A DNA stretch of 64,000 bases. It comes from an uncultured archaeon (GTDB lineage: Archaea; Asgardarchaeota; Lokiarchaeia; Sigyniarchaeales; SOKP01). Of this stretch, positions 14,366 to 52,160 are shown in pieces. The stretch covers positions 96,001-160,000 of the forward strand of contig CAZALK010000008.1 in NCBI GenBank assembly GCA_964486045.1, written 5' to 3'. Each line of letters starts with the position of its first letter. The stretch's first letter is position 1. Made by a program: the position numbers and the translations under genes. The notes under the pieces were generated by a model that saw only the letters and a program-made list of their open reading frames with translations, made no database searches and was not told where the DNA came from.

Positions 14366-14620
14366 TTAAGAATTCTTAGTACATTGATTACGATTAAAAT
14401 CTTGATAATAGATCAACTTAACATTATGTTGAATTATCGAAATAGTTTTGCTGGTAATTCGTTAAATTTTACCACTAAAACATTTGGTTTACCGTTATTT
14501 TTTGACTATTAGTTAAATAGAAATAAAAATCATTTTATATCAAGACGATCAAATTTCTGATATATTTATTAATCTGAGTTTCTATTAATCCCAAGATCCA
14601 ATTAAAAATAGGATCGAGTT

Positions 14621-17600
14621 ATGAAATCTAAAAATAGCGATAAATCCGAAGAGAGCTTTAAGAAAGCTACTGAATTTCTCCAAAAAATTTGGTGGTTTAG
14701 TTTTTTAGTAGTTATAGCTCCATTAGCAACAGGATTAACAGGTTATTTGATTTTTCGTTTTTTTCAACAGAATTTTTACATAGAATTATCTTTTACAGTA
14801 ATTACGTATATGTTCGCATTACTCTTTTTCTATAAAGCCTTTGATAAGTATAGAAAAAACCCCTTTTTTCTAAATAAAGAAAATAATCTGGTTGCTCGGA
14901 TTCACATCGTCTATTTAATATCTATTCTGGCACTTATTGTTACCCCAATTTTTGTATACATTTCTCCCGCAGATTCATTTTTACTGCTCCCAGTAATAAG
15001 TTTTGTACCTCTTTATAATATAGTATACTATTACTATCGTTTCCAGCCCATTGGTTTTTTCAATAAGGCAGAGGGAGAATTCAAACATGCTACTAATTTC
15101 TTAATATTAGTTAAGCAACCTTATAATTTGATAATCTTCGTTAACTACATTGCTCAAATCATTTTCCTTTCACTTACTTTTTTCACAGAATTCTCGTGGC
15201 TCTTCGCTTTATTAAATAATTTAGCATTTTATCTCATCACATTTACAGTAACGCGAAAAATTTCTCGTGAGATTAACAAGTCTATTAAGGAAAATAAACC
15301 GTTTCTGCAAGATTTAACAAAGTATAAACAGCGGTTTGTTATTTCAATTACAAGCTTGATTTTCATACTCTTAATTCAGATGCCCTTTGTTATAATGGGT
15401 CTTTCAGGTGTTCAATATACAGGTTTAGAATTAATGACTGGTTCTTTTTTAAGTATCATTTTTGTATTGATTTACGTTAAAACTTTATTTTATATTAACT
15501 ATTATTATAACTCTTTACTTAGCATCTATAAAGATCCTACGAAGAGTGATGATTCTGAAGAAGAGATACCCACCCAAGGCATTAAATATCAAAAATATAA
15601 TACTTTTTTATCTGGAGTCTTAATTGGATCTATAACATTTTTTTGTTTTCTAATAAGAGTGCACTGGATATTGTTAATAGTTTTACCATTTTTCTTTATT
15701 TTTGCCTATTATGAACAGAAAGCAAAAATGTACCCAAAACAATATAGTAAATATATTTACCTATTAAATTCTATAAGTATATTAATAGCAATTTCCTTTG
15801 GGCTTTTTTCAAATATATTTTTCCTAAATATCCAATTAATAATATTTTTGATATCACTTTATTTCACTCTACAAATTCTTGTAAGAAATAAGTATTTCAT
15901 AAAGGAAAACATAGTTATTATCCAGAATTTTTTGGCTATTGCAAGTTTTACTATTATAACATATTCAATTTTCGGATATACATCATTTGAAAACCTAATT
16001 GTTTTTGAATTAGCGATATTCCCATCAAATCCCGTAGTAACATTCATTTCTAACATTCTATTACATGGAATATTGATTTCAATTATTTCCTTAGTTTCCT
16101 TTTACTTTTTATTTGTTCGCGTATTCTCCATAAAGCGTTCAAAACTTTTCCGGTTTAGTGTATTTGGCCATGTTTTCCTCATTGAGCTCTTTATCTTTAT
16201 TCTGGTTAATTTAAGGGGCTTTTCCTTGTTTGAAGGAATTATAGCATTAAAACTTCTACTCCTGTCTAGCTTATTATTTCCTTCAATTTTCATATTGTTT
16301 ATATTTGCAAATTATCTATTGGGTCTACTTTCTCGAAAGCACTTTTCGCAATTAATTTACTACTTTTTATGGGTTTTAATAGCAGATATCTTCCTAGTTA
16401 TAATTTTCGTCTTTTTTAATAATACTGTTCTGCCAGTTATGTTAACTTTAGATTTCTTATTTTTGTCAATTTTTTGTCAATTTAATTTGAAATTTGGGTT
16501 GAATTTAGGAAAGGTAAAGGATTCTACATTTGAGCGTTATGTCAAAATAAATCCCTATATTTTGACTCTTGAGTTGTTTGCTCTGTTTTTCTTTTCATTT
16601 TATTCTGTTATATTAATAGATTTAGCATGGTTCGATAAAATCATTTTCTCATCATATTTTTCTTTATTAGTGATGACCTTTTTGATAAACATACTTTCAA
16701 GAAGAAACCGGGTATTTTCAGCCTCAATAGCCTTTAAAATTAACCTAATATTCTTAATGTTTAGTGCTGGTTTGGCTTTTTATTATTCATTCTATTACAC
16801 TCTGAGCACTTTCTACGTATTTGTAACTCCTTTTTTAAGTTTGTTCTCAATCTTATTTTTTCCAATATACTACATGTATAGAAAGAAGATTCACCTACCC
16901 TTAGAAAAAAAATATCAAGAAGAAGAAAAAGGAGAAGAAGATCAAAGAGAAGGAGACGGAGAAGAAAAAGTAGAAAAAGAAGAAGAAAGAGAAGAAGAGA
17001 AAGAAGAAAATGTAATGCGAAAATTTTTAATAGCTGACTGCATAATTTTAGCTATTTTTATAACATTAATACCTAGTATTATCAGCTTAGAGATCTACCG
17101 TTTAGGATTAAGTGTCAATATTTTACCAACTATCAGTTTTACGATACTAATTTTACCATCAATCCTGATTTTTTTTGTATTTGTTAATCATTTATTAGGG
17201 GTGTTTTCTCGAAAACAATTTTTGCTAATAAATCATAATGTACTTTGGTTTTTAATAACCAACATATTTGTTGCAATCTTTCTTACCTTTCTAAGTAATT
17301 TTGTAATTTTAGCTTTAGATTTTCTATTTTTTTCCATTTTTATTCAACTAAATTTAAAGTTTGGATTAAAATTAGGAAGAGTAAAGGAGACTATATTTAA
17401 GAGATTTTCTAATCTTAATTCTTATGTTATGGCAGTAGAACTCTTTATATTGTTCTTCTTCTTCTTTTACTTTCTTATTTTAATTAATTTAGCATTTTAT
17501 GATAACCTTATACTGTCTATTTATTTATCACTGTTAGTTATAACTATTTTGGGTAATTTATTCTCCAAAAAGGAATTAATATTTTCTAATTCAATGAGCA

Positions 17601-20600
17601 TTAAAATTAATATAACCACCTTAATATTTAGTGCTGGTACTGCTTTCTATTATTCGTTTTTATTTACCTTTAGCACTTTCTATGTATTTTTAATCCCGTT
17701 CTTATGCTTATTCTCAATATTATTTTTTCCATTTTACTATCTAATAAAAATGAAGAGATATGAAAATCTGACACGCAAGATTTTAGTAATAGATTGCATC
17801 TTGATCGCCATTTTCCTGACATTCATACCTAGTATTCTAGGGTTGGATTTATATTTTCGCTTGGGAGAACTTGTAGATGTTATTTCATTCTTGAATTTCA
17901 CATTCTATATAGCCATTAGCCTTTTAATCTTCATTTATTATTTAGTAGAGCATTATGGGATGAAGGATAAATACCAACTAGGAGTTTTAAAATCTCAAGT
18001 TATAATTGAAATTTGTTTGACCGGAACGACGGCATTCTATTATATTTTTATGCTATTATCGGGAACGATGTATGGGTTTCTTATTCCTTTTATTGCAGCA
18101 TCATGTTTCTTTTATCTCCCAATTTTATTTTCTTATAAAAAACGACTTTTTAATGTAAATCTTGTAAAAAACACTATATTTGTTAATAGTCTACTCCTTT
18201 CTGGATTAATAGTTTTAATCCCGACTTTTGTAGGATTAGAAATATCAAGTTTAGGGTTAGGAGCGAGAATTGATTTTTTCATGGTTACTGTGTTAACCTT
18301 AATCTTATTGTTTGTTATTTTAAAATTCTTAGATTTTGTTTGTATAAAATTTAAAATATTAGAAAAGATAATAAAACACTTAAAATTACTTGAAATTCTT
18401 GCTTGGTTTTCATTTTCACTTTTTACGGCTTTATGGATCTTCCCTTATCTATTAACAGAATTATCATTTAGTTTGACAATTTTTACATTTTTTATGTTAA
18501 ATATCTATACTTTAAGGTTGTTATCTGATTATTCTAAAGAACTGAAAATCAGTAACTATTTACTTGAAAGTATTCTATATGGCATTGTTTTTTCGTTTTC
18601 TTATTTATTAGTATCTTTAATTCAGATCACATTTATTCTAAACTTCCTCCCATCAGGATTAACTTCATTAAATATCGTGTGGTATCTTGGGCTATTTTTC
18701 TTATTTAGCTTAATTTTCATCAGGTTAAAATTAATAAAACCAAGATTTGAATCGCTTAGAAATTGGGTTGAATTGATTTCTTGGTTTTCATTTAAGATTT
18801 TTGTGAGCCTTTTCATATCCGTGGTTCTTCCCCTTTCAATTTTAACTCAGATAATCATCTTTATATTAATTTTCTCAATTTTAAGCCCTGTAACACTAAT
18901 ATATTTCAAAAAATTGAAAATAATTTCAGAGGTTGCTCAGTTCTTTACAAAAAAAATACTTCTAGCCTTATTTATTATCTCAAGTTTAAGTCTATATTTG
19001 GATCTTTTCAATAATTTTACAAGGCCCATTCTTTCATTTAATATTTCTAATTTTATTCCTCTTACTGTTATTATAGCTAACCTGTTTTTGTTTGTTTATT
19101 TCTGCTTATTGCGATATAATTCGGTTATCGAAAATTATTCGATTACGCAATTGACTAGATTTTATCTTTCATCTTTCTTATTACTAATTAGCCTATTTTT
19201 TATGTATTTTCCATTACCGATATTCTCTTTCTTTACGTTAATTCTTATTATATCGAGACGTAGTATAATAAACATCTTTAGATTTCTTGCTTATCTAATT
19301 CTAGGATATATATTGTTTATAGCAATAACAGCATTTCCGTTTGGTGGATTTATTTATGTGAATTCATTTGATTTAAATTTGTTAGGTTATTATAGCCAAA
19401 TTTATTTATCAGCCTTATCGATTGTTTTACTTTTTTCAATATGGCTAAATATTAAAAAAAATAATATTCTCGAAAAGTTTACTCTATATTCAACTTTCTC
19501 TCTTCTGTCTTTTGTAGTACTGTTCTCCTATTCTTTAATCCCTTTAATCTACAACATTACGATATCACTCTTTATATTTTTATTTTTCATGGGAATTTAT
19601 TTCTATCGACTGAAAAATGTATTATATAAGTGGTTTATTAAGCCTTGTGTTTTATTAGCAGTTTTTGATCTAATGAGTTTCATATCATATTTCTTGCTCT
19701 TTAATCAACCACCTTACAATCAACTCCCTTACGTTGGGCTAAACCAAATACTTACCTTTACGTTGACAATAGGCATAACAGGATTTGTATTTTTGTTTTT
19801 GTTTAACAAAGCTCCTGCAAATTTTAGGAAAAAATCATTTTATTTCGTTCTGTTCGCGATAATATTATGCATACCCACATTTTTGTATTTCCTCATAGTT
19901 TCTTCATTTTCTATACCCTTTGAGGATCCGGTACCGATAATATTTAGTATTAACGTGGGGGTTTTTCTTTTCTATCTTTGCGTGGGAATTTATCAGGGGA
20001 GAGTTTCTTGGGCAATTTGGAAATCAGGTTGGTATGTGTGGAACATTTTACCTTTTGTTAATTTTATAATTATATATAAAAGTTTAAGTGGGGTTGATGT
20101 TATTAAAGATTCTATAAGTCTTTTTGGGTCTAATGGGTTTACAGGTTCATCAATTTTGTCCATAATTATTTGTTCCCTATTTTTCTTACCTGTTATCTAC
20201 GCTAAAATAAAGAAACATTTTTTAAAAATCATCTTTATCGTTTGGGGGGAAAGTCTATTTCTGTTATATTGGATTTCCCAAAATCTATTTTTGAGTGATT
20301 TTTTGTTAAGAAATCTTTTATTTGTTCTTTTTACGGTTCTCTTACTAATGCCCATCTTAATTGGATTGAAATATTGGAAGATCGTATCTATTTTTTGGAT
20401 AACGCTGATAGTCATCAATGCTTTATTTTTGCTCTTTTATTTAGTTTCAATAGGAATTTCATTAGAAGTGACGATTTCAATTGATATCTTAGTAATTGGG
20501 TTATTATTGATTATTTATTCCTTTTTTCCAAATGTTAGATCAATCGGGATTATCTTGATTATCAGTTATTTTATAGTTCTCACCGGTATTTTTATCACAG

Positions 20601-23600
20601 TCTATTTCGTTATTTTGTCAGTAGTTCAAAATTATATTTTCTCTGTGAATATAAGTCTAATGGTAGTAGGATTCAGCTTATTTTCATCAAAATCCATAAA
20701 ATTATCACACAGAATAATTGATTTATGCCTTTCTTGGATTTTAATATTCAATTTCGCGTGGTTAACATTTAATACATTTAGTTTAGTTCCGCAATTGGTA
20801 TTATTTGCCTTCTTTTTAGCATTGACCGTTTTGGGATGTTCCTTTTTTATCTTTAATAAATATAAATTAAAATTTCATCTAAATCGCGCAATTCCATTGT
20901 TCATTGTTGCAATTGGAGCATCATCCTCTATAACATCATTGTTTTCTGTTTTCTTGGGTGCTTCACCTTATATTTTAATTAGCATATTTTCAGGGGTTTT
21001 TGTAATTTTTCTCTATTTTATAATTATTGAATACAGATATTTCCTTTGGTCTTTAATTCCTATTCCGTTGGCATTACCGGTCTTTGAATTGTTTTTATCA
21101 ATTGAAGCAATTCTCTCCTTGTGGTTTTTAGCTTTTTTGACCTTTTCAATAATTTATATCACCTTTTTTCAAGTAATATTTAATCTTTTTAAGAATTATG
21201 AAAGGGATGATACAAAAGAAATGAAGTATGAAGGGGACGATAAAATAGAAATGAAGAACAGTATGAAGAAGATTTTTCAAGATAAAAATCAAATTAAGCT
21301 AGTAAATTTCACATGTTTTATTCTCAATTCCCTATTTATCTCATTATTCATCTCAATTCTGGTCCCAGTTCTGCAAAATCAATTTTTATTCAATCAAATT
21401 ATTTTTGTCTATCAAATTATGGATTTTCTAATAATCTGGCCGATCTTTATATTATTTAGTTTAAAATATATCGAAAAATCAGAAATTAAAATAAAATTAA
21501 GAGATCCGCTCCTTTACTTCAATAAGATTTGTCGTGGCATATACTTACTAATTCCTACAGCTATGATTATTAACCTACTACTTTTTATGATTTATGCACA
21601 CATTGATACCATTATAATTTTCTACTCAATCGCTCTAATTTTTAGTGGTGTTATATTTTTTGAGTCATATGTTATCGACAGAAGATTTTTCTATTATTTA
21701 CTAAATTCCACGAGGGATAAGTTTAGCTTTTGGTCTTTAAGTGCGTTTATTAATTTATTAGCTTTTTTCTTCTTTATGTACCATCAAAACATATTCTTAC
21801 TAATAGTAACAATATCGCTTTTAAATCAGCTATGTTTCAATTTCCTCTCCCACCTAGACGTTTCAAAAGAAAAGATCTCCAATGGGCGAGTAATCCTATA
21901 TTATATTCTCTTCATTTCGGGATCATTCTATTTAGGTTCATTGATATCTAATGGAATTATGATAATCTTCGGAGTGTTGAGTGATTTGACATATTACCTA
22001 CTTATATTTCAAAATTCTTTTCTAATTTTATTTATTTTGAGTTACTTTCTCATAAAAGAAGATGTAAAGTTAAAAAGAGCAATTGAGATGATTCTTTTAA
22101 TGGTGTTTCAAGGATTATTGGCCATCAATTTCATGACTATCTTCAACTTATTCAACATTTTAAATATTTTCTCAACAATTTTAATTATTTTAATAGAAAC
22201 ATGCCTTAGTTTTCAAACTATTAAATATATTAATTCTCTCTTCTATAAAGGAAGGAAACCAGAATTCTTGACAAGAGCTTTTTCATTACTAATAATCCTA
22301 TTGTATTTTGAAACGAGTCTATTGTTTTATGGGTTGATAATTATTTTTACAGGAATTTTTGAAAGTATTTTGGTTTCTCAGTTGATATTTTTTGGATTAA
22401 CATTATTAGATATTTATTCACTTAAGAAAATAAAGAGGGGCTATGCACAATTAATCCATACATTTAGTTTCTTTGTGATTTCATTAATGGTTTTAATAAT
22501 TTTAAATACTTCAGCTGCAATTTTCCAAATATTACTGAGTTTGGAGGTGCTGTTGTTTATGTTAATGCAGTTTTATACCAATTATTCTTTTTTTGTTTCA
22601 TGGCATCAATTATACCCAAATAAAAAAGAGTTAATTGATAAAAGGAGATCAGAGATAACACGAGTTTTAGGAATTATTTTCTATACTAATTTATTTATCC
22701 TTTTACTCCAAGGATTATTAATATTCAGTCTCGATCTGCAATTAATTTTTTTACTTTTAAGTCTACTGGTTCACATCTTGATGATTATTGATACCTATGT
22801 TTTGAAATTTATAGGAAAAGTTTCTAATTACCTCAAGGTATTTTCTTGGGTTTTCATAATGACTTTTACAACAATTTATCTTATTTGGATTTATCTTCTA
22901 TATTTCTTTTCCTATTTAGCTACTTCTATACCTCTCCTCATTTTTATCTTACTATTTGAAACAGCTTACCTCTTTAAACTGTTAGATTTTTCAAAATATG
23001 TAATTTCAAATAAGAAGAAGATTAAAAAAATTCTCCTCTATATTTTATACTTAGATTTTATAACTTGGCCGGTATATAATGCAACATTAAATCCATTCTA
23101 TTCATTAAATCTGATGCTTGCTTCAGTAGGAATCTTGTTTATTTTAACTTATGTTGATAAATATTTAATTGGTGTATTTAATGAGAAACAGCAGGTAAAA
23201 CTTCGAAAAATTTCGTTTTTAACAATTGGAATCTTATTATCCTTTGATATATTCATCTCCTTAGGATTTATTCTGTCTCTCAATTTGTTCTTCACGTTAA
23301 GTGTAGCATTATTTACATTTGTAATTTTCTTAGGGATAATAATAAAACCATTTAAAGAACATTCCTCTATTGCCTTAGCTTTTTGGGCAGCTATTTTTTC
23401 TTTGTTAAGCTTGATAATATTCTTTTCCTCAAACTTGTTGGGAATCAGTGTAGCTATTTTTGTTATTACGGTTATTATTTACCCCTTTGTGTTTCTGTTG
23501 GAAGAATTACGTGAGCTCTTCAACAATTTTGTTGATGTCCTTATTAAAACCTTTAAAAAAATCAATCGACTAATAATAAATTTTCTAAAAACAGTTTTCA

Positions 23601-24088
23601 ACTTTGTAAAAATCCATTTCAAAGTAATTTGGACAATAATTAGTGCTTTTCTGGGGATATTTTTTGGTGTTCTTATATCCGATATTTCATCAATCTTCCC
23701 ATTTCTGTTTTCACTAGGTTACCTGAATCCAGTTCATTCTGTTTTACTAGCATTGGCAATTTTTGGTTTGCTTTATTTAATTATCCCGTACGCTCAAACG
23801 GATGATCCAGATATAATCTTCAAAAGAAGGATATTACGCTTATCCATCGGTTGGGGAAGTGTAATAGGGTTGTTGTTTATTGTAGTTACACCAGTTTGGT
23901 ATATTTTTACAGTTTTAATATCAATTGCAGTCGTAGGTTCCATAATATTAGTTTATATTGGTAGAAAGGAAGAGAGAGAGAAAATTTCAGTGAAATGGAG
24001 ATTTTACACACTCCTTTCTCTTTTCATATTATTAATACTTTTTTTGGTTTTATTCGTTTATCAACAACTCTCTATTAATCCTATCTAG
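14621..24088 (+). CDS. Giant polytopic membrane protein (3155 aa) of unknown function
   Basis: Uninterrupted 9.5-kb ORF; continuous hydrophobic helices with short basic loops; internal duplication. Confidence 0.88.
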   Translation: MKSKNSDKSEESFKKATEFLQKIWWFSFLVVIAPLATGLTGYLIFRFFQQNFYIELSFTVITYMFALLFFYKAFDKYRKNPFFLNKENNLVARIHIVYLISILALIVTPIFVYISPADSFLLLPVISFVPLYNIVYYYYRFQPIGFFNKAEGEFKHATNFLILVKQPYNLIIFVNYIAQIIFLSLTFFTEFSWLFALLNNLAFYLITFTVTRKISREINKSIKENKPFLQDLTKYKQRFVISITSLIFILLIQMPFVIMGLSGVQYTGLELMTGSFLSIIFVLIYVKTLFYINYYYNSLLSIYKDPTKSDDSEEEIPTQGIKYQKYNTFLSGVLIGSITFFCFLIRVHWILLIVLPFFFIFAYYEQKAKMYPKQYSKYIYLLNSISILIAISFGLFSNIFFLNIQLIIFLISLYFTLQILVRNKYFIKENIVIIQNFLAIASFTIITYSIFGYTSFENLIVFELAIFPSNPVVTFISNILLHGILISIISLVSFYFLFVRVFSIKRSKLFRFSVFGHVFLIELFIFILVNLRGFSLFEGIIALKLLLLSSLLFPSIFILFIFANYLLGLLSRKHFSQLIYYFLWVLIADIFLVIIFVFFNNTVLPVMLTLDFLFLSIFCQFNLKFGLNLGKVKDSTFERYVKINPYILTLELFALFFFSFYSVILIDLAWFDKIIFSSYFSLLVMTFLINILSRRNRVFSASIAFKINLIFLMFSAGLAFYYSFYYTLSTFYVFVTPFLSLFSILFFPIYYMYRKKIHLPLEKKYQEEEKGEEDQREGDGEEKVEKEEEREEEKEENVMRKFLIADCIILAIFITLIPSIISLEIYRLGLSVNILPTISFTILILPSILIFFVFVNHLLGVFSRKQFLLINHNVLWFLITNIFVAIFLTFLSNFVILALDFLFFSIFIQLNLKFGLKLGRVKETIFKRFSNLNSYVMAVELFILFFFFFYFLILINLAFYDNLILSIYLSLLVITILGNLFSKKELIFSNSMSIKINITTLIFSAGTAFYYSFLFTFSTFYVFLIPFLCLFSILFFPFYYLIKMKRYENLTRKILVIDCILIAIFLTFIPSILGLDLYFRLGELVDVISFLNFTFYIAISLLIFIYYLVEHYGMKDKYQLGVLKSQVIIEICLTGTTAFYYIFMLLSGTMYGFLIPFIAASCFFYLPILFSYKKRLFNVNLVKNTIFVNSLLLSGLIVLIPTFVGLEISSLGLGARIDFFMVTVLTLILLFVILKFLDFVCIKFKILEKIIKHLKLLEILAWFSFSLFTALWIFPYLLTELSFSLTIFTFFMLNIYTLRLLSDYSKELKISNYLLESILYGIVFSFSYLLVSLIQITFILNFLPSGLTSLNIVWYLGLFFLFSLIFIRLKLIKPRFESLRNWVELISWFSFKIFVSLFISVVLPLSILTQIIIFILIFSILSPVTLIYFKKLKIISEVAQFFTKKILLALFIISSLSLYLDLFNNFTRPILSFNISNFIPLTVIIANLFLFVYFCLLRYNSVIENYSITQLTRFYLSSFLLLISLFFMYFPLPIFSFFTLILIISRRSIINIFRFLAYLILGYILFIAITAFPFGGFIYVNSFDLNLLGYYSQIYLSALSIVLLFSIWLNIKKNNILEKFTLYSTFSLLSFVVLFSYSLIPLIYNITISLFIFLFFMGIYFYRLKNVLYKWFIKPCVLLAVFDLMSFISYFLLFNQPPYNQLPYVGLNQILTFTLTIGITGFVFLFLFNKAPANFRKKSFYFVLFAIILCIPTFLYFLIVSSFSIPFEDPVPIIFSINVGVFLFYLCVGIYQGRVSWAIWKSGWYVWNILPFVNFIIIYKSLSGVDVIKDSISLFGSNGFTGSSILSIIICSLFFLPVIYAKIKKHFLKIIFIVWGESLFLLYWISQNLFLSDFLLRNLLFVLFTVLLLMPILIGLKYWKIVSIFWITLIVINALFLLFYLVSIGISLEVTISIDILVIGLLLIIYSFFPNVRSIGIILIISYFIVLTGIFITVYFVILSVVQNYIFSVNISLMVVGFSLFSSKSIKLSHRIIDLCLSWILIFNFAWLTFNTFSLVPQLVLFAFFLALTVLGCSFFIFNKYKLKFHLNRAIPLFIVAIGASSSITSLFSVFLGASPYILISIFSGVFVIFLYFIIIEYRYFLWSLIPIPLALPVFELFLSIEAILSLWFLAFLTFSIIYITFFQVIFNLFKNYERDDTKEMKYEGDDKIEMKNSMKKIFQDKNQIKLVNFTCFILNSLFISLFISILVPVLQNQFLFNQIIFVYQIMDFLIIWPIFILFSLKYIEKSEIKIKLRDPLLYFNKICRGIYLLIPTAMIINLLLFMIYAHIDTIIIFYSIALIFSGVIFFESYVIDRRFFYYLLNSTRDKFSFWSLSAFINLLAFFFFMYHQNIFLLIVTISLLNQLCFNFLSHLDVSKEKISNGRVILYYILFISGSFYLGSLISNGIMIIFGVLSDLTYYLLIFQNSFLILFILSYFLIKEDVKLKRAIEMILLMVFQGLLAINFMTIFNLFNILNIFSTILIILIETCLSFQTIKYINSLFYKGRKPEFLTRAFSLLIILLYFETSLLFYGLIIIFTGIFESILVSQLIFFGLTLLDIYSLKKIKRGYAQLIHTFSFFVISLMVLIILNTSAAIFQILLSLEVLLFMLMQFYTNYSFFVSWHQLYPNKKELIDKRRSEITRVLGIIFYTNLFILLLQGLLIFSLDLQLIFLLLSLLVHILMIIDTYVLKFIGKVSNYLKVFSWVFIMTFTTIYLIWIYLLYFFSYLATSIPLLIFILLFETAYLFKLLDFSKYVISNKKKIKKILLYILYLDFITWPVYNATLNPFYSLNLMLASVGILFILTYVDKYLIGVFNEKQQVKLRKISFLTIGILLSFDIFISLGFILSLNLFFTLSVALFTFVIFLGIIIKPFKEHSSIALAFWAAIFSLLSLIIFFSSNLLGISVAIFVITVIIYPFVFLLEELRELFNNFVDVLIKTFKKINRLIINFLKTVFNFVKIHFKVIWTIISAFLGIFFGVLISDISSIFPFLFSLGYLNPVHSVLLALAIFGLLYLIIPYAQTDDPDIIFKRRILRLSIGWGSVIGLLFIVVTPVWYIFTVLISIAVVGSIILVYIGRKEEREKISVKWRFYTLLSLFILLILFLVLFVYQQLSINPI
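16274..17866 (+). repeat. Internal tandem duplication (~250 aa x2) within the giant membrane protein
   Basis: LDFLFLSIFCQFNLKFGLNLGKVK / LDFLFFSIFIQLNLKFGLKLGRVK; FSAGLAFYYSF / FSAGTAFYYSF; DCIILAIF / DCILIAIF; limits approximate. Confidence 0.85.
21197..21256 (+). repeat. 30-bp in-frame tandem duplication
   Basis: tatgaaagggatgatacaaaagaaatgaag / tatgaaggggacgataaaatagaaatgaag (YERDDTKEMK / YEGDDKIEMK). Confidence 0.8.
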
Positions 24089-24339
24089 GGATCATCCTGA
24101 AAGAAGAAGTGATTCATTTTCTTAATTTTGATATCTAAATCTTAGTTTTAGAGATCTCAACTTAAATTTAAATTTTTCTCACTGGTTTTTTTAGCTTGAA
24201 GCTTTTTTAGAATTTTTTTTCTTTCTTAGAAATATTCTTATTTAGTTGGAGAAAAATTATAAAATTTATATATGTGTTAAAATGAACTATTATAGACTAT
24301 CTAAAAAAAAAAAATATAATATAAAAAGTGATCACAAAT

Positions 24340-29544: not shown

Positions 29545-30972
29545 ATGATGTCAGCACCATTAGAAAAACTGTTAAGAGATGCAAGAATAGATTTAGTTTT
29601 ATCAAGAATTGAAAAGGATCCAACAGTTATTAATGAAGTAATTAAGAATTTAGATAGTGATATTAGATCTATTAAATTCAATTCCATTAATGTTTTAGGG
29701 GAATTAGGCCAACAATCAGCAGATGCGATCCCAAAAATAATGAGTTGCTTAGAAGATGAGGATTGGAGCATATGTCGGGAAGCAGCTCGATCCTTGGGTA
29801 AAATTGGTGATAGCGCGAAAGAAGCAATACCACAAATATCAAAAATGTTAGAAGATCCAGAAGAATCGATCCGAAAAGAGGCTGCGATTGCTCTTGGTAA
29901 AATTAGAAAATCTACACCCGAATCAATTTCTAGTTTAATTAAAGCAGTAGATGACGATAGTGATACTGTCAGAACTGAAGCAATAAAAGCACTTGGAGAG
30001 CTAGGGCCGGATGCGTATGAAGCCATTCCTTCTATAATGAATGGACTTAAAGATGTAAGTTGGACAGTTAGAACTGCCTCAGCTCAGTCAATTTCCTTGA
30101 TTGGTAAAGATTCTACTAAAGCTATTCCAAGTTTGATAAATGCAATTGACGATGCAGATTGGAGAGTGCGCAGTATGGTTATAAATGCCCTTGTAGAGGC
30201 AGGGGAATCGGCAATTCCACCGTTAGTTGAGATTTTAAAACTTAAAAATGATTTAGCAAGAAAAGAAGCACTAGATTGCTTAGGAGAATTGAAAATTACC
30301 GACCCTGAAATAATTGCAATTATTTCACAATTATTAAACACTAGCTCTGAACATGTTAGGGGAAAAGCAGCAGATGCTCTTAGAAGTATTGGTACCCCCG
30401 CTATTCCCGCTTTATTAAAGGAATATAAAAATGTTAAGTCTAAAATGAAAGTTGCTATCATTTCTAGCATTGGAGGGATTGGTAAAGAAGCTAAGGAAGC
30501 AACACCTACGATCATTAATATCTTAAATATTCCGGAACAAGAGAAAGAATATAGCGCCTCAGTTCCCAATAGGATAAAAAGAACATTATTAGCTTTTTTA
30601 AATGATCCGCTAGGAAAATCAGCCTCGATTAGAGCAGAAGCGGCACGAACGTTAGGTAAAATAGGAACTGATTCAGAAAATTCTGTAACTTCACTTGAAC
30701 TTGCTTTAAACGATCCAAAAAAAATTGTACGTCGTGAAGTCGCACTTTCTTTAGGTAAATTAGGCACAATAGCCAAAAGTGCAATCCCATCTCTGATAAT
30801 AGCATTGAAAGATGCAAATCCAGATGTGAGATGGAGATCCTCTGAAGCACTAGGAGTAATAGGAGTAAATACAGAAGAAGTTATTTCTAGTTTAGATACT
30901 CTTATACATGATAAATGTGATTATGTATGTGAATCTGCAATAACTGCACTTGATACTTTAATGGAAGAATAA
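29545..30972 (+). CDS. HEAT (PBS lyase-type) repeat protein
   Basis: Many repeats of the form D.D..VR..AA.ALG.IG..A..AIP.L. Confidence 0.92.
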   Translation: MMSAPLEKLLRDARIDLVLSRIEKDPTVINEVIKNLDSDIRSIKFNSINVLGELGQQSADAIPKIMSCLEDEDWSICREAARSLGKIGDSAKEAIPQISKMLEDPEESIRKEAAIALGKIRKSTPESISSLIKAVDDDSDTVRTEAIKALGELGPDAYEAIPSIMNGLKDVSWTVRTASAQSISLIGKDSTKAIPSLINAIDDADWRVRSMVINALVEAGESAIPPLVEILKLKNDLARKEALDCLGELKITDPEIIAIISQLLNTSSEHVRGKAADALRSIGTPAIPALLKEYKNVKSKMKVAIISSIGGIGKEAKEATPTIINILNIPEQEKEYSASVPNRIKRTLLAFLNDPLGKSASIRAEAARTLGKIGTDSENSVTSLELALNDPKKIVRREVALSLGKLGTIAKSAIPSLIIALKDANPDVRWRSSEALGVIGVNTEEVISSLDTLIHDKCDYVCESAITALDTLMEE

Positions 30973-46711: not shown

Positions 46712-48769
46712 CTATTTTATTGAAGCCATGAATTTCAAAATAGTATCCATAATAGGAAGAGAGTTACAAATTATTCCAATTCTTTTAGCCCGAAAATCAA
46801 AGGCTTTCCTTCCAATAGGTGCGAGGTATGGATAATTGGAGATAATTATTACTTCATCTCCAGCCAGTATTGCATTAAATTTAACATTTTTACTCAATTC
46901 AAGGAAATTACAATTTTCACATTCTTTTGTTATCATTTCTAATTTTCTTATCCCCTCTTCCCATTGAATTGAGCTTTTTATAAGTTCCGTCTTATTTAAT
47001 AATATAGAGAAAGAAGGGATCTCTTCTAGGTGTGATTGAAATATTGGACCAATTCTTTTCTGACTTAGCTTTTCAGTAATTAATTGGAATGGCGCTTGTA
47101 TCTCTCTCATAGCATCTATTAGTATATCTTCATGTTCATAATCATATAATAATGATATACATTCTATATTCACCAAAGTGTTAATTTTTTCTTTGATTTC
47201 ATATAGTAAACCATTTGTACTCTCTATATTCTCGTTTAATATAAAAAATTCAAGGTCCTCAATTTTTTTTTCAAAAAAATTGATAATATTAATTCTGTAA
47301 TCGGACAAATTATTACAATAGACTTGAGTGGATTTTGCTAAGTATTTGTTTAAAACTTTTTTTCTATCAAATGAATCAGGTAAAAAATCGATAACAAATT
47401 GCAAAAGGCTTAAAGGTGTCTTTCCGCCCTCTAAATAAATGTTTGGAGTAATTAAACCCTCCTCGTTGTAATTATAACCAAGGAATGATAAACAATTGTA
47501 AAAGACTTTGTTGTTATCAATGATTAAAAAATTTGCATCAATCATATTATCCGATATAGTAAAAAATACTCTATTTTTATCTTTTCTTTCTAGTCCAGAA
47601 GATACTCCCAGTCTAAACTCCTTGATCTTTTCACGCTGTTCGCTAGGTGAGATCTCTTCTACACCCCCCCAAATAAACGTAATAGGTACTTCATTTTGAC
47701 TAGATTCATATATAATACTCTGAAGAAATGATAAATTGTTTAAGTTTAAATTATCAGAACAGATAACAATAAAATCTTGTGCATTTTTAACGTGTTCAAT
47801 AATAAGATTTTTTACTTCTAAATTTTGATATTTAAATACTATTTTATTTACACTTTCAATTCGTTCTTTTAAAATTTTAAAATCTTTTTTTATTCTATCA
47901 AACCTATCCTCTAACAATATTTGAAGGCTCAAATTCTCTTCAAGATTATTAAAAGAGTTAATTTCTTCCTGTAAAAAGTTAAGGTTGAATAGAATTTGGG
48001 TTATAAATTTTTTATTTGACAAAATAATCGGTGTTTCAAGAGTTAAATCTTCTTCTATTTCTTCTGATTCCATAAGTTTTGATTCAAAAGCTTTCTGCCA
48101 ATATTTTTGGACGACTCTGGGGAATATATCAAAATCCAGATTAAATAAAATACCTTCTTCCTTTTTAATTGGAATATATAATTTATCTCGATGTAAGGGA
48201 TATAAGAAATTAATTTTTTCGACATTTTCTAAATCTCTAACTCTTGATTTAACACATTGAGTATATTTTAGTAAAGAATAACTATATATATGTTGAAATG
48301 TCTCTGAAGGTGAAGATTTTAAATCAATGAAATTCGTTTTATCAGGATTAGGTGTCTTTAAATAATCATTAACATCATTTTGAATAAAGAGTTCCCCCCC
48401 AATTTTTTCTTGAAGAATTATTACGGGATATTTATAGACAGTAGTATCAACATCCAAAAATTCATCTAGTTTATCTTTTTCAACATATTCAATAATCTTT
48501 TCGCTAAGTGTTACTAATCCACTATTTAAATCAATATGGATTAATCCTGAATATATTAATGGTGTTAATATATAATTCATAATATGTTTTCCAACATTAA
48601 AGGCTTTAACTATGTTTATTAGTGAATTATCTTTACTTATTAATTTTAAAACTAATTTCTCAAGATGAGAAAGCATCTTACTTTTACGAATCACAATTTC
48701 ACATTTTTCCATTTGAATTGGAACAGTAATAACATCATCTTTTTTAACCTCCAGATTTTCCTCAGACAT
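46712..48769 (-). CDS. mkoB: Mokosh type I MkoB-like protein: N-terminal wHTH-like region and two degenerate PLD-like domains
   Basis: Starts 1 nt after the kinase-helicase stop; 'AQDFIVICS', 'VPITFIWG', 'IDANFLIIDNNKVFYNCLSFL' and 'KFNAILAGDEVIIISNYPYL' follow the PLD layout but lack HxK. Confidence 0.62.
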   Translation of the reverse strand: MSEENLEVKKDDVITVPIQMEKCEIVIRKSKMLSHLEKLVLKLISKDNSLINIVKAFNVGKHIMNYILTPLIYSGLIHIDLNSGLVTLSEKIIEYVEKDKLDEFLDVDTTVYKYPVIILQEKIGGELFIQNDVNDYLKTPNPDKTNFIDLKSSPSETFQHIYSYSLLKYTQCVKSRVRDLENVEKINFLYPLHRDKLYIPIKKEEGILFNLDFDIFPRVVQKYWQKAFESKLMESEEIEEDLTLETPIILSNKKFITQILFNLNFLQEEINSFNNLEENLSLQILLEDRFDRIKKDFKILKERIESVNKIVFKYQNLEVKNLIIEHVKNAQDFIVICSDNLNLNNLSFLQSIIYESSQNEVPITFIWGGVEEISPSEQREKIKEFRLGVSSGLERKDKNRVFFTISDNMIDANFLIIDNNKVFYNCLSFLGYNYNEEGLITPNIYLEGGKTPLSLLQFVIDFLPDSFDRKKVLNKYLAKSTQVYCNNLSDYRINIINFFEKKIEDLEFFILNENIESTNGLLYEIKEKINTLVNIECISLLYDYEHEDILIDAMREIQAPFQLITEKLSQKRIGPIFQSHLEEIPSFSILLNKTELIKSSIQWEEGIRKLEMITKECENCNFLELSKNVKFNAILAGDEVIIISNYPYLAPIGRKAFDFRAKRIGIICNSLPIMDTILKFMASIK

Positions 48770-48770
48770 T

Positions 48771-51700
48771 TTAATATGGAACCTCGTCGTGTGAGATTAT
48801 TTTTCCTTCTTTTTGAAAAAAGACTGCCACCTTACTAAATTTTTCCATAATTGGATTTCTACGATGATTTAAACACATTTTTAAATCACCTACAATTATT
48901 TCTACTTTTCTCGCTCTTGAGAGCATTACATTTAGTCTTTGAGGATCAGGAATAAAACCCCAAGCTGATCTGATTCCTTCTTTATTGTTACTTCGAACAA
49001 GTGATATAATCACTAAATCTGCCTCTTGACCCTGAAAACTATCAACAGTATAACAAGAATTTTTAATATTTATCCCCCCCAAGTTTGGAAGGTTGTTTGG
49101 TAAGTGAGTCTTTAAAACATTTACTTGCTCATTATAAGGGCTTAAAATAGCCAAGGAGAATTGGATATACTTCTTATTAACTCTAATTTTTTTTAATATT
49201 CTATTAATTAATTTAACTTCAGAAATGTTGTAAAAATCTGTACCAGCCCGTTTTTCTCCATAGATTCTTTCATTTTTTGTATTGATCCAAATTAATTGTT
49301 CATTTGACATCATAGTTGGTTCTAAAATTAAATCATCTATTTCATGAATTTCTTGTCTAAAAGCTCTGTCATAGAAAATTGTTGAAATCATTTTACTAAT
49401 TTTTGAAGGAAGTCTATGTTGGCCTATGAGTGTATTACAAGATCTCCTTTCATCAGCAGAATCATATGAAGGGCTTATTTTTTTAAATCGTTCGAACATA
49501 GATTGGAAGATTTTTACTTCTCTAATTGTTAACTTTCTAAATTCTAAGAAATCTCTTTCATTAAAGGTTATTTCTTCTTTAGATTCCTCTTCTATTTCAT
49601 CTAATTCTTCATTGATTAGTTCAATAATATCATTTAGTTTAAATGGAGGGAGTTGGTTTTGATCTCCAATTAGGACCCACTTATTCCCTAGCTGCAAAGG
49701 TCGGAATAATTCAGAAGGATATGTTTTAGCAGCCTCCTCGATTATTACTAAATCAAAATTAGGTCTTGATTCCAGTTTACTCAAATCATTAGACGTACTA
49801 GTACAGAAAACTAAGTTTGAACTCTCTCTAATACTATCTGTCCATTCACGACTTGGTGCTTTACCTTCGTATTTTATTATGTTTTCAATTTCGGCTAAAA
49901 TGTCATCATATTTTTTAAGATTAGGATTCCATTTTTCAATATTCTCTAACATTTTAATAGCCATTTGTTTAGGAAAATGCTTAAAGGCTATTGATCCTGG
50001 CGGATAATTACGTTCTCTAAATGGATTAATTAGTCGAACAATTTTAGGTTTTGGATTAATGTTTAATTCCTTGCACATGTCATAAGTCTTCTCTAGAAGG
50101 TCATCTAAAGCCGCATGCTCTTTACTTGAGACTAGAATCCTTTTATAAGGGTCTCTTTCAAGAGTTAATCTAATTAATTCCTTTGCAGACCATGTTTTTC
50201 CCGTTCCTGGAGGTCCTTGAAGAAGGAATATTGGAAAAGTGTAGAAAATAAAATTTACGATATCACTCTTATTGTCTTTCAAAAAATATTGATGTATCGC
50301 AGCTGGATTTAAAATCGCATCAATTAAATAATCTTTATCTTCTAAATTTTGAATAGTCATAAATTTCCTTTTTAATAGATGCAATGTTGGTTTTAAATCC
50401 CAAAAACGCAAATAACCATTTAAAGAAGGACTATCATTTTTTCTAACTTCTTCCCATTTTACAACAATATTGAAATCATCAGGTTCATCAATAATTTCAA
50501 TAAATTTCCATTTTCTTCGTTCTTTAAACCTTTGTTTTAAATCTGGTGAATCTGTTAGTTCTACAGTTTGAGTTTGAGAATTTCTTAAGACTTGTATGAA
50601 CCGGGTCCTTTCAGCTTTGTTAAAAATGTTTATACTAATTTGTCGTTTACTTTTTTTTGGACTCTCTTTATCGAATGAATCGTTTATAAGTTCATATTCG
50701 AATATGTATCTTTTTTCAATATTTTGCTCTACTTTAGTAATAAGTTTTAATGCTTCTAACCATCTTTTCTTATCTAGTTCATAATCTGATGGTTCTTCAT
50801 CAATAGTTCTTATTTGTGTTAAAGCATTTGCAAATATCCGATCCCAAGTAGAATATGATTTTTCTTTAAGATCTTGCCAATATAACTCATTTACTTTACA
50901 GACACAAATATCATTTTTCAATCCAAAACTTCTCTCTTCATTTTTATTTAATAAACTTACTATTGCAATTTTTCTATTATTACGACCCCTCTGAAATTTA
51001 TACTTTCCATTTTTACCAATTGCCCATAAGGGCCAATCTCTATTATTCGTTAAATAAAAAGATAATTCTGAAAATTCATTTTTTAAAAAAGCATCTGGAT
51101 ATTCTCGAATACCTTGAATATTTACATCAACCTTCCGAGCAATCCAGTTGAGAAAATGACTATCTCGGTCTATATTGAAGTATATTGGTAATTTAGGTGT
51201 TGTAATTGTGAGATATTTAAGTTCGTTCACAAAATCTCTAATCTTTTCTACAAATTCATCAATGCTTTCAAATCTGTCTTCGTGATTCAATTCGGTTGCT
51301 TTTAAAATTATTTCTTTTTCTTGTTGTAATCCCTCTTGAAAATGTATATTATCACGGATTTCATTGTATAATCTAGCTCTATCTGAAAACTCAGTGTCTT
51401 CATATTCAATCATATCTAAATCAAAAATTAGAAAAGCCATTACTAATCCTAAAGAAAAAATGTCTGATTTAAAAGTCTCCATCTCTAAGCACTCAGGTGC
51501 TCTAAAAAAATGCAAGTTATTTTGAATAATATTTTTTGTAATCTCATCAGAGATTAGATTAGATATTGAATATAAATAAATACTCCAGTTAAAATCACCT
51601 AATCTAAAGATATGATCTTCACCTTCTCGATAAGCTTCCCTGTTAAAATAAACCGTATCAAGAGAGATGTTTCTATGTAGGAGTCCTGCGTTATGAATCG

Positions 51701-52160
51701 CAAGTAATCCCTCTGATAATTTTAAAATTCCTTCCCAAATTTTTTTTTTTGAAAGATTTGAATTCTTTAATTGATCAAATAGTTCGATATCTTCATTCTC
51801 CTTTTTAGATAAGAGAATCTCCCTTAAACTTGAACCTCCTGCCTCAGTTATTAAAATAAAACAATTCTCCTCCTTATCGTACTCACCATCAATTAATTTT
51901 AGTAATGTATTTCCTCTAGAAATATTAATTGCTCTTTGATTTAAAGAAATTTCATAATGCCATAGATATTGAGCTAACTCTTGAATACGAGGGTCCTCTT
52001 TAACGTTAATTTTTTTTAATATAACTCTCTGTTGTAGACCACGATCTTCGGCGATATATTGATTTATTTCAATCTTATCACTAAAAGGGATCGCAATATT
52101 GCCTGTAATTTCTTCAATAATTCTATATCTTGTTTTCCATGAATCATAAATTGAGGTCAT
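48771..52160 (-). CDS. mkoA: Mokosh type I MkoA-like protein: N-terminal Ser/Thr kinase-like domain fused to a UPF1/DNA2-like SF1 helicase
   Basis: Kinase: VILKK, HRNISLDTV, LGDFNWS, APE, SDIFSLG. Helicase: QGPPGTGKT, IIEEAAK, LIGDQNQLPP, QHRLP, ILSPY..Q, TVDSFQGQEAD, RLNVMLSRAR. Confidence 0.8.
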   Translation of the reverse strand: MTSIYDSWKTRYRIIEEITGNIAIPFSDKIEINQYIAEDRGLQQRVILKKINVKEDPRIQELAQYLWHYEISLNQRAINISRGNTLLKLIDGEYDKEENCFILITEAGGSSLREILLSKKENEDIELFDQLKNSNLSKKKIWEGILKLSEGLLAIHNAGLLHRNISLDTVYFNREAYREGEDHIFRLGDFNWSIYLYSISNLISDEITKNIIQNNLHFFRAPECLEMETFKSDIFSLGLVMAFLIFDLDMIEYEDTEFSDRARLYNEIRDNIHFQEGLQQEKEIILKATELNHEDRFESIDEFVEKIRDFVNELKYLTITTPKLPIYFNIDRDSHFLNWIARKVDVNIQGIREYPDAFLKNEFSELSFYLTNNRDWPLWAIGKNGKYKFQRGRNNRKIAIVSLLNKNEERSFGLKNDICVCKVNELYWQDLKEKSYSTWDRIFANALTQIRTIDEEPSDYELDKKRWLEALKLITKVEQNIEKRYIFEYELINDSFDKESPKKSKRQISINIFNKAERTRFIQVLRNSQTQTVELTDSPDLKQRFKERRKWKFIEIIDEPDDFNIVVKWEEVRKNDSPSLNGYLRFWDLKPTLHLLKRKFMTIQNLEDKDYLIDAILNPAAIHQYFLKDNKSDIVNFIFYTFPIFLLQGPPGTGKTWSAKELIRLTLERDPYKRILVSSKEHAALDDLLEKTYDMCKELNINPKPKIVRLINPFRERNYPPGSIAFKHFPKQMAIKMLENIEKWNPNLKKYDDILAEIENIIKYEGKAPSREWTDSIRESSNLVFCTSTSNDLSKLESRPNFDLVIIEEAAKTYPSELFRPLQLGNKWVLIGDQNQLPPFKLNDIIELINEELDEIEEESKEEITFNERDFLEFRKLTIREVKIFQSMFERFKKISPSYDSADERRSCNTLIGQHRLPSKISKMISTIFYDRAFRQEIHEIDDLILEPTMMSNEQLIWINTKNERIYGEKRAGTDFYNISEVKLINRILKKIRVNKKYIQFSLAILSPYNEQVNVLKTHLPNNLPNLGGINIKNSCYTVDSFQGQEADLVIISLVRSNNKEGIRSAWGFIPDPQRLNVMLSRARKVEIIVGDLKMCLNHRRNPIMEKFSKVAVFFQKEGKIISHDEVPY

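Follow-up and report, generated by a model that had tools for sequence, protein, structure and literature searches.

A giant gene encoding a protein made almost entirely of transmembrane helices lies on a 64,000-nucleotide stretch of DNA, referred to below as the window, from an uncultured archaeon of the class Lokiarchaeia (GenBank assembly GCA_964486045.1, contig CAZALK010000008.1, positions 96,001 to 160,000 of the forward strand). The open reading frame (ORF) occupies 14621..24088 on the (+) strand, begins with ATG and continues uninterrupted for 3,155 codons plus a stop, as an earlier note made from the letters of the window had recorded. The gene is present as a single copy in the 5.18-Mb genome. 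Base composition around it is about 27–28% GC, and the coding strand is T-rich (AT skew approximately -0.2) because 45% of the protein is leucine, isoleucine and phenylalanine (17%, 14.7% and 13.3% respectively). At about 28% GC, approximately 8% of random codons are expected by arithmetic to be stops, and the 3,155 open codons are therefore not attributable to chance.

A full-length search returned 98 clusters of homologues, 1,750–3,750 residues long, at E-values from 0 to 1e-185. One of these clusters is a full-length copy with 98% identity from a different assembly. All 98 are unnamed or annotated as 'hypothetical', and none carries a Pfam domain. Scanning species-representative genomes yielded 111 relatives and 76 loci, and full-length copies are also present in closed genomes. 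When compared with the closest locus (L001), the gene showed a synonymous divergence (dS) of 0.82 and a ratio of non-synonymous to synonymous substitution (dN/dS) of 0.17 overall; the ratio was 0.13 in the core of the protein and 0.17–0.19 elsewhere, every region falling within 0.13–0.20. The start of the protein is conserved as M.S.....SEE...KATE.L.K.WWF, and motifs at the C-terminus are conserved as well. As judged from these sequence comparisons, the gene is real, conserved and under purifying selection. An assembly fusion, which the earlier note had considered, was excluded by the existence of at least 98 full-length relatives, including the copies in closed genomes, and by the dN/dS of 0.17.

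The gene is also transcribed in a cultured relative. The orthologue in P. syntrophicum MK-D1, DSAG12_00898, was reported at 152 reads per kilobase per million mapped reads (RPKM), compared with 203–317 for its neighbours (Imachi et al., 2020, Supplementary Table 3, PMC7015854); this value describes the transcript of the MK-D1 orthologue, not that of the gene in the window, and not the level of the protein. The orthologue in Candidatus L. ossiferum, NEF87_002906, was not found in the examined supplements of the L. ossiferum motility preprint.

Topology and modular architecture

A dynamic-programming model based on the Hessa scale placed 95 transmembrane helices in the protein (82–102 over nine parameter sets), in good agreement with the 80–100 segments that the earlier note had estimated by eye. 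Within residues 1130–2290, the same model found 37 helices and the AlphaFold2 model described below about 38. Loops rich in lysine and arginine alternate with loops lacking these residues at 85 of 95 neighbouring pairs, compared with 47.9 +/- 4.8 and a maximum of 66 in 10,000 shuffles. The median length of the basic, cytoplasmic loops is 16 residues, and that of the outer loops, which are free of lysine and arginine, is three. The earlier description of the loops as short and basic thus holds for every second loop only, since the others are tiny and uncharged. Read from the sequence, this alternation is the positive-inside rule operating over approximately 47 helical hairpins with a predicted cytoplasmic N-terminus. 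The first 22 residues, which are hydrophilic and basic and are followed directly by helix 1, are consistent with such an N-in topology. Because the outer loops are only about three residues long, the two helices of each pair would be forced to pack side by side.

The predicted helices contain four lysine or arginine and 20 aspartate or glutamate residues among 1,891 positions. No soluble domain is present, as the earlier note had proposed. The longest non-membrane run in the protein is an acidic, low-complexity linker of 59 residues, and the median of the longest such run across 136 family members is 34 residues.

The protein consists of five modules, namely an N module, an N arm, a core, a C arm and a C module, all of which are given here with (+)-strand coordinates. 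The N module (14621..15550, residues 1–310) has eight helices and contains the best-conserved loop of the entire protein, a cytoplasmic loop at residues 71–95. This eight-helix module is fused to the remainder in the window protein. In a large clade it has a gene of its own; at locus L047, it is a separate ORF of 313 residues that overlaps the following ORF of 2,540 residues by 8 nucleotides. A similar offset (about 915–946 nucleotides) occurs at about 10 of the 76 loci, L047 included, and stand-alone N-module proteins of 310–320 residues form at least 120 clusters. The break point is the acidic cytoplasmic loop after helix 8. Two rare relatives carry an insert in this module: a PAS-like domain in P0138 (residues ~144–271, E 5e-5) and a zinc ribbon in P0119 (residues ~138–217). 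Both inserts, which score below the Pfam cut-offs, share one site, the second cytoplasmic loop of the N module, corresponding to residues 137–169 of the window protein.

Both arms are composed of repeated helix blocks. The N arm (15608..18007, residues 330–1129) varies in length among relatives, and its repeats scored 45–170 in hhalign against a maximum of 29 for the reversed-sequence null. It contains a tandem duplication, the first copy of which (16271..17143, residues 551–841) ends in an acidic linker of glutamate and lysine at residues ~755–800, and the second copy of which (17147..18004, residues 843–1128) is about 290 residues long. The two copies are 47–57% identical by segment BLAST, with E-values down to 7e-58, and 15 of the 40 relatives aligned lack the block of copy 2. 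Insertions and deletions of 138, 255 and 290 residues were found in the N arm among relatives. The C arm (21308..23020, residues 2230–2800) gave hhalign scores of 36.8 and 39.4 against the same null maximum of 29, and is the main site of insertion in relatives, with 250, 500 and 635 residues added after residue ~2640. Profile–profile repeats above the null extend over residues ~400–1340 and ~2220–2800. The length steps among relatives (approximately 130, with 138 as the measured case, 250–290, 500 and 635 residues) are confined to the arms.

Between the arms lies a middle part of fixed length (18008..21490, residues 1130–2290). In the 52 loci whose alignments cover at least 85% of this part, it measures 1,135–1,200 residues; a deletion of about 230 residues is present in five others. 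Within this part, the core (19388..21220, residues 1590–2200, about 610 residues and 21 helices) is the most conserved region of the protein. Three of the four copies from cultured species, which are 22–25% identical to the window protein in the core (alignment A3), have a core of 603–627 residues, and the fourth was aligned over 547 residues only. No internal repeat was detected in the core (hhalign at most about 27, against the null maximum of 29). The protein had been described in the earlier note as repeat-built, and a search for the repeat unit had been suggested; this description is borne out for both arms, by the tandem duplication and by profile repeats above the null, and not for the core. 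A charged and poorly conserved cytoplasmic linker (21182..21307, residues 2188–2229) connects the core with the C arm. The C module (23021..24085, residues 2801–3155) has about 10 helices, and contains a 41-residue amphipathic cytoplasmic segment (residues 2961–3001) and a conserved basic loop (residues 3114–3127).

In three alignments (A1–A3), each headed by the window protein, every invariant position is present in that protein, and the invariant residues are almost all tryptophan, proline, phenylalanine, tyrosine, asparagine, serine and glycine. The most distinctive element is a helix with a ladder of tryptophans (20006..20083, residues 1796–1821), in which W1797, W1800, W1804 and W1807 lie on one face and are followed by P1811 and N1814. 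Alignment A1 shows no variation at W1800, W1807, P1811 and N1814; in A3, which is wider, W1800 alone is invariant and the other three are conserved at 90% or more. The local confidence of the structure model (predicted local distance difference test, pLDDT) is lower in this helix, at about 56–74. The helix is followed by the only well-conserved outer loop (20084..20152, residues 1822–1844), which carries a conserved FG...GS motif and is predicted to form a short beta hairpin, with strands at residues 703–711 of the model of residues 1130–2290 and at residues 243–251 of the core model. The loop was placed on the outside because the basic loops flanking it alternate.

Most of the conserved polar residues are found at helix ends, and those situated deeper are few (D1683 and K1392). 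In the N module, core and C module, identity to the query in the cytoplasmic loops is 0.47–0.50, equal to that in the helices; the corresponding values are 0.34–0.38 for the loops of the arms and 0.26–0.36 for the outer loops. The best single loop is that at residues 71–95 (0.74), followed by residues 3114–3127.

Taxonomic range and searches for known families

The earlier note had suggested that the distribution of the protein across Asgard genomes be determined. With 600 residues of the core as query, matches were obtained in 117 of 400 Asgard genomes. Besides the window's own genome, all matches but one fall in the window's own order, where they are spread over four families (100 of 134 genomes in family f1, 1 of 1 in f2, 12 of 14 in f3 and 2 of 4 in f4). 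The other 29 families, with 246 genomes in all, gave a single marginal match to this query (E 5e-4). A profile of the core run against 1.84 billion representative proteins returned only 58 matches, and those that could be identified are members of the giant family or fragments of them. The family is therefore sharply bounded.

Family f3 includes the closed genomes of Ca. L. ossiferum B-35, P. syntrophicum MK-D1 and Ca. Harpocratesius repetitus. The orthologues in these organisms are DSAG12_00898 (QEE15075.1; 3,940 residues) in MK-D1, NEF87_002906 (UYP46621.1; 3,146 residues) together with a 4,908-residue paralogue in Ca. L. ossiferum, and MCF2139232.1 (4,296 residues) in Ca. Harpocratesius repetitus. 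All are annotated as 'hypothetical protein'. They resemble the window protein in the core (E 1e-19 to 7e-39), in its equal length and matching invariant tryptophan, proline and phenylalanine positions, in the fused N-terminus and in consisting almost wholly of membrane helices. They differ from it in the low identity of the core given above, in their much longer arms and in their gene neighbours. The two L. ossiferum paralogues (L077 3779-18505, 4,908 residues; L078 4327-13767, 3,146 residues) are located about 240 kb apart. No paper naming the locus tags or accessions of these orthologues was found, and nothing relevant was found in the literature on giant Asgard membrane proteins.

Five loci (L008, L010, L015, L046 and L062) carry the gene at 35–55% identity (best segment) in metagenome-assembled genomes (MAGs) titled Hodarchaeota, Thorarchaeota, Hermodarchaeota, Odinarchaeota and 'Nanopelagicaceae bacterium'. 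The gene order of the window is also found at all of these loci except L062, and placement based on GTDB apparently puts at least L008 in the window's own genus. The titles of these MAGs look unreliable, or the contigs look mis-binned.

Searches for known families were negative. A Pfam-A scan of the whole protein gave no family at E ≤ 1, the Piezo families and PF10101 included, and NCBIfam gave nothing meaningful, with one chance match of 11 bits. A profile of 41 homologues had no match at E ≤ 1 among all PDB sequences. In a protein-language-model search, the core matched unnamed clusters at 0.88–0.89, and the nearest cluster bearing a Pfam family was DUF2339 at 0.82, which serves as a lead only. 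The C-terminal 926 residues gave no usable match in this search.

Two segments were modelled with AlphaFold2, as the earlier note had proposed. The model of residues 1130–2290, built from 53 sequences, had a pLDDT of 76.9 and a predicted template modelling score (pTM) of 0.48; the model of the core only, built from 68 sequences, had a pLDDT of 84.3 and a pTM of 0.55. In these models the local structure is confidently predicted, and the global arrangement is not. Foldseek found nothing in the PDB at E ≤ 0.001 with either model, and its top rows, none of them significant, were occupied by water-soluble repeat proteins of the HEAT, TPR and nucleoporin types, at TM-scores of 0.1–0.18. Comparison with 48,161 chains by VIA gave best Z-scores of 8.9 and 9.5, to generic helix bundles of 70–170 residues that represent helical background, and a second look with VIA gave a best Z of 8.3. 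Piezo, transporters and channels were not among the fold-search matches listed, which is not proof of absence for models this large.

None of the tests of membership in known families assigned the giant protein to one, no paper on it was found, and it is for this reason classed as new. It falls outside all described families and folds. Its affiliation is with an undescribed giant Lokiarchaeial family, the features of which it displays in full: the core of constant length, the tryptophan-ladder helix, the FG...GS outer loop and the eight-helix N module.

Genomic setting

The giant gene is preceded by an AT-rich intergenic region of 255 nucleotides (14366..14620, + strand), located after a GH4 glycosidase gene and presumably holding the giant gene's own promoter. 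It is followed by an intergenic region of 239 nucleotides (24089..24327, + strand), in which several oligo-T runs, read by eye, look like an archaeal terminator. Further 5' neighbours of the gene are an MFS_2 sugar symporter on the opposite strand, an aminotransferase and a glyoxalase-fold protein, and a Liv-type ATP-binding cassette (ABC) transporter operon lies on the 3' side. The order aminotransferase–GH4–giant gene is kept even where the giant proteins are only 32–35% identical, and the Liv operon is kept in closer relatives only. The statement in the earlier note that the gene stands alone is thus correct as to its spacing, but the order of the genes upstream is nevertheless conserved.

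The neighbours in cultured relatives are different. A flotillin/SPFH (Band_7) gene, DSAG12_00897 (L080 1207-2439 (+)), is situated just upstream of the MK-D1 orthologue (L080 2712-14534). Flotillins are scaffolds of membrane microdomains. This adjacency occurs in MK-D1 only, and was absent in L. ossiferum and Harpocratesius. In L. ossiferum, the neighbours are histidine-pathway genes together with a GNAT acetyltransferase or a PlsC-type acyltransferase, the latter divergently upstream of the 3,146-residue paralogue. An amidohydrolase was also seen among the neighbours in cultured relatives. For none of these neighbours was a functional connection with the giant gene apparent.

Elsewhere in the window, a 475-residue protein made entirely of HEAT repeats is encoded directly after the Liv transporter operon (29545-30972 (+)). 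A fusion of 1,128 residues (48771-52160 (-)) joins an N-terminal protein-kinase domain to a Upf1/UvrD-like helicase (AAA_11/AAA_12). It is flanked by ORFs of 684 residues (46712-48769 (-)) and 959 residues (52452-55331 (+)), both without a Pfam family.

Candidate functions of the giant protein

The absence of a soluble domain, the small number of buried charges and the conservation of aromatic residues, proline and small residues point away from catalysis and classic transport. The gain and loss of blocks in the arms, the conserved cytoplasmic loops at the ends and in the centre, and the separable N module point to a structural or organising role in the bilayer. Our preferred, still tentative reading is that the giant protein may be a length-adjustable intramembrane scaffold or spacer with cytoplasmic docking sites. 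The protein is a single polypeptide embedded almost wholly in the cytoplasmic membrane, with its approximately 47 antiparallel helix pairs arranged in a long series, and its shape would be ribbon-like. The arms are sets of four- or eight-helix blocks that lineages gain or lose through tandem duplication. Topology, modularity, conservation, taxonomic range and the lack of relatives are established by the comparisons above; the role as a scaffold and the ribbon shape are inferred. The conserved cytoplasmic loops of the N module, core and C module would be sites for docking or assembly, and the spacing of these sites, or the area of membrane between them, would be determined by the arms. The aromatic-rich core, with the tryptophan ladder and the single conserved outer loop, could then serve as a hub for assembly or lipid contact.

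This picture of a solenoid inside the membrane comes from sequence logic. Soluble alpha-solenoids of the HEAT, TPR and nucleoporin type are likewise built of successive antiparallel helix pairs by duplication of repeats; however, they are water-soluble, and no global superposition of the giant protein models on soluble helical-repeat proteins was obtained with VIA (root-mean-square deviation 19–33 Å over >200 residues). The likeness therefore lies in the building principle and not in the fold. This lack of superposition weighs against a scaffold, and several further points do so as well. The pTM of both AlphaFold2 models is only 0.48–0.55. The neighbouring genes, which serve sugar and amino-acid metabolism or uptake, have no evident functional link with such a role, and no partner is known. 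Even at a completeness of 96% or more, several f1 genomes of the genera g7, g10 and g11 had no match to the core query, and the giant protein may be dispensable or more divergent in these genera. Also, a channel or a sensor would likewise be expected to combine a conserved core with a single conserved outer loop.

The roles suggested in the earlier note, a scaffold, a mechanosensor or a membrane-shaping protein, are each conceivable. The earlier note had also connected the protein with the membrane protrusions of Lokiarchaeia. This connection is weakened, because cultured Hodarchaeales make similar protrusions (bioRxiv 10.1101/2025.02.26.640444) and, in the search of 400 Asgard genomes with the core, the giant family did not turn up outside the window's own order.

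A more far-reaching form of the scaffold reading, which we regard as doubtful, is that the protein constitutes a new structural class, a transmembrane helical-repeat belt. Such a belt would extend for tens of nanometres in the plane of the membrane, its length would be tuned by four- or eight-helix blocks, and it would fence, measure or mechanically couple regions of the membrane while cytoplasmic partners held both of its ends and its centre.

An unlikely alternative is a mechanosensor similar to Piezo, in which the core would form a gated pore or a signalling hub, probably on oligomerization, and the arms would be levers that bend the membrane and sense its tension. According to a review, no membrane protein is known to have more passes than Piezo, each chain of which has 38, from nine four-helix units and two pore helices (PMC9256749). 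Like Piezo1 and Piezo2, the giant protein is very large and polytopic, and its arm blocks of approximately 130 residues, or about four helices, flank a conserved unique module as the peripheral tandem units of Piezo are attached to one. The only conserved outer loop and the invariant tryptophan-rich helix both belong to the core, and AlphaFold2 confidence is lowest at that site, as could occur at an oligomer interface. However, the giant protein has about 95 helices, approximately 2.5 times as many as Piezo, and its unique module lies in the middle, whereas the pore of Piezo is C-terminal. Piezo also has a large extracellular cap and an intracellular beam, but no cap, beam or anchor-like soluble part exists in the giant protein, in which no non-membrane run exceeds 59 residues. 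The core helices lack a conserved charged or polar lining, the Pfam scan detected no Piezo family at E ≤ 1, and no Piezo chain was among the fold-search matches listed, a result that is inconclusive for models so large.

A role in membrane-lipid homeostasis, in the manner of bacterial Arc3A (DUF2339), appears similarly improbable. Arc3A (PA5114) is a massive polytopic protein with 35 predicted transmembrane segments and no catalytic residues, and its relatives vary in the number of segments; together with its partner Arc3B, it protects the membrane by preventing the build-up of lysophospholipids (PMC8926400). The massive polytopic character, the variable number of segments and the lack of enzyme-like residues are shared by the giant protein, a core in which aromatic and small residues are conserved would be suitable for contact with lipids, and the language-model lead to DUF2339 at 0.82 points in the same direction. 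In contrast, PF10101 found nothing in the window's genome at E ≤ 1 and reached its cut-off (33.6 bits) in none of the 400 Asgard genomes, and Arc3A differs from the giant protein in being bacterial, in its 35 segments, in having the partner Arc3B and in the absence of any similarity detected by hidden Markov model or profile–profile comparison. No Arc3B-like partner profile occurs among the annotated flanking genes, although no search aimed at Arc3B was made and no Pfam family could be assigned to several of the flanking ORFs.

One DUF2339-like protein was available for direct comparison. A Lokiarchaeial genome (G158) encodes a polytopic protein of 972 residues (L081 196-3114 (+)) with a sub-threshold DUF2339 match of 25–28 bits, and an M48 peptidase gene (L081 3101-4003 (+)) overlaps and follows it. 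Sixteen segments of the giant family scored at most 21.3 against this protein in hhalign, compared with 21.7 for the reversed sequence, a comparison with a single weak target; the 972-residue protein is unrelated to the giant family. From the PF10101 searches and hhalign, kinship of the giant family with DUF2339 was rejected on sequence grounds.

It is very improbable that the giant protein is a transporter of great size or translocates ions in the way of fused Mrp or complex-I antiporter-like subunits. As to the 14-helix antiporter fold, only weak local matches to small Mrp and complex-I membrane subunits were obtained (Z 8–9 over 70–127 residues), but these values are background for helical bundles, and the PDB profile search gave no match at E ≤ 1. 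No chain of lysine and glutamate in mid-membrane appears among the conserved residues, only 24 of the 1,891 helix residues are charged, and a variable number of arm blocks is ill-suited to a fixed transport cycle. Finally, the extreme composition and strand skew could suggest an artefact, whether an ORF open by chance in T-rich DNA, a chimera formed in assembly or a gene in decay. This reading is refuted by the 98%-identical copy in another assembly, the 98 clusters of homologues, the full-length copies in closed genomes, the low dN/dS at the given dS, the conserved start and end, and the transcription of the orthologue in a cultured relative.

If the belt were real, it would organize the membrane as an intramembrane 'solenoid', a principle that has not been described in any organism. 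As a scaffold and nothing more, the giant protein would still be the first length-tunable repeat architecture inside a bilayer. Approximately 95 passes in one chain, and up to roughly 125–150 by length in the relatives of 4,300–4,900 residues, challenge ideas on how membrane proteins are inserted and folded. The family is conserved under purifying selection in the order to which the first Asgard archaea brought into culture belong, and its function is thus directly testable in MK-D1 and L. ossiferum.

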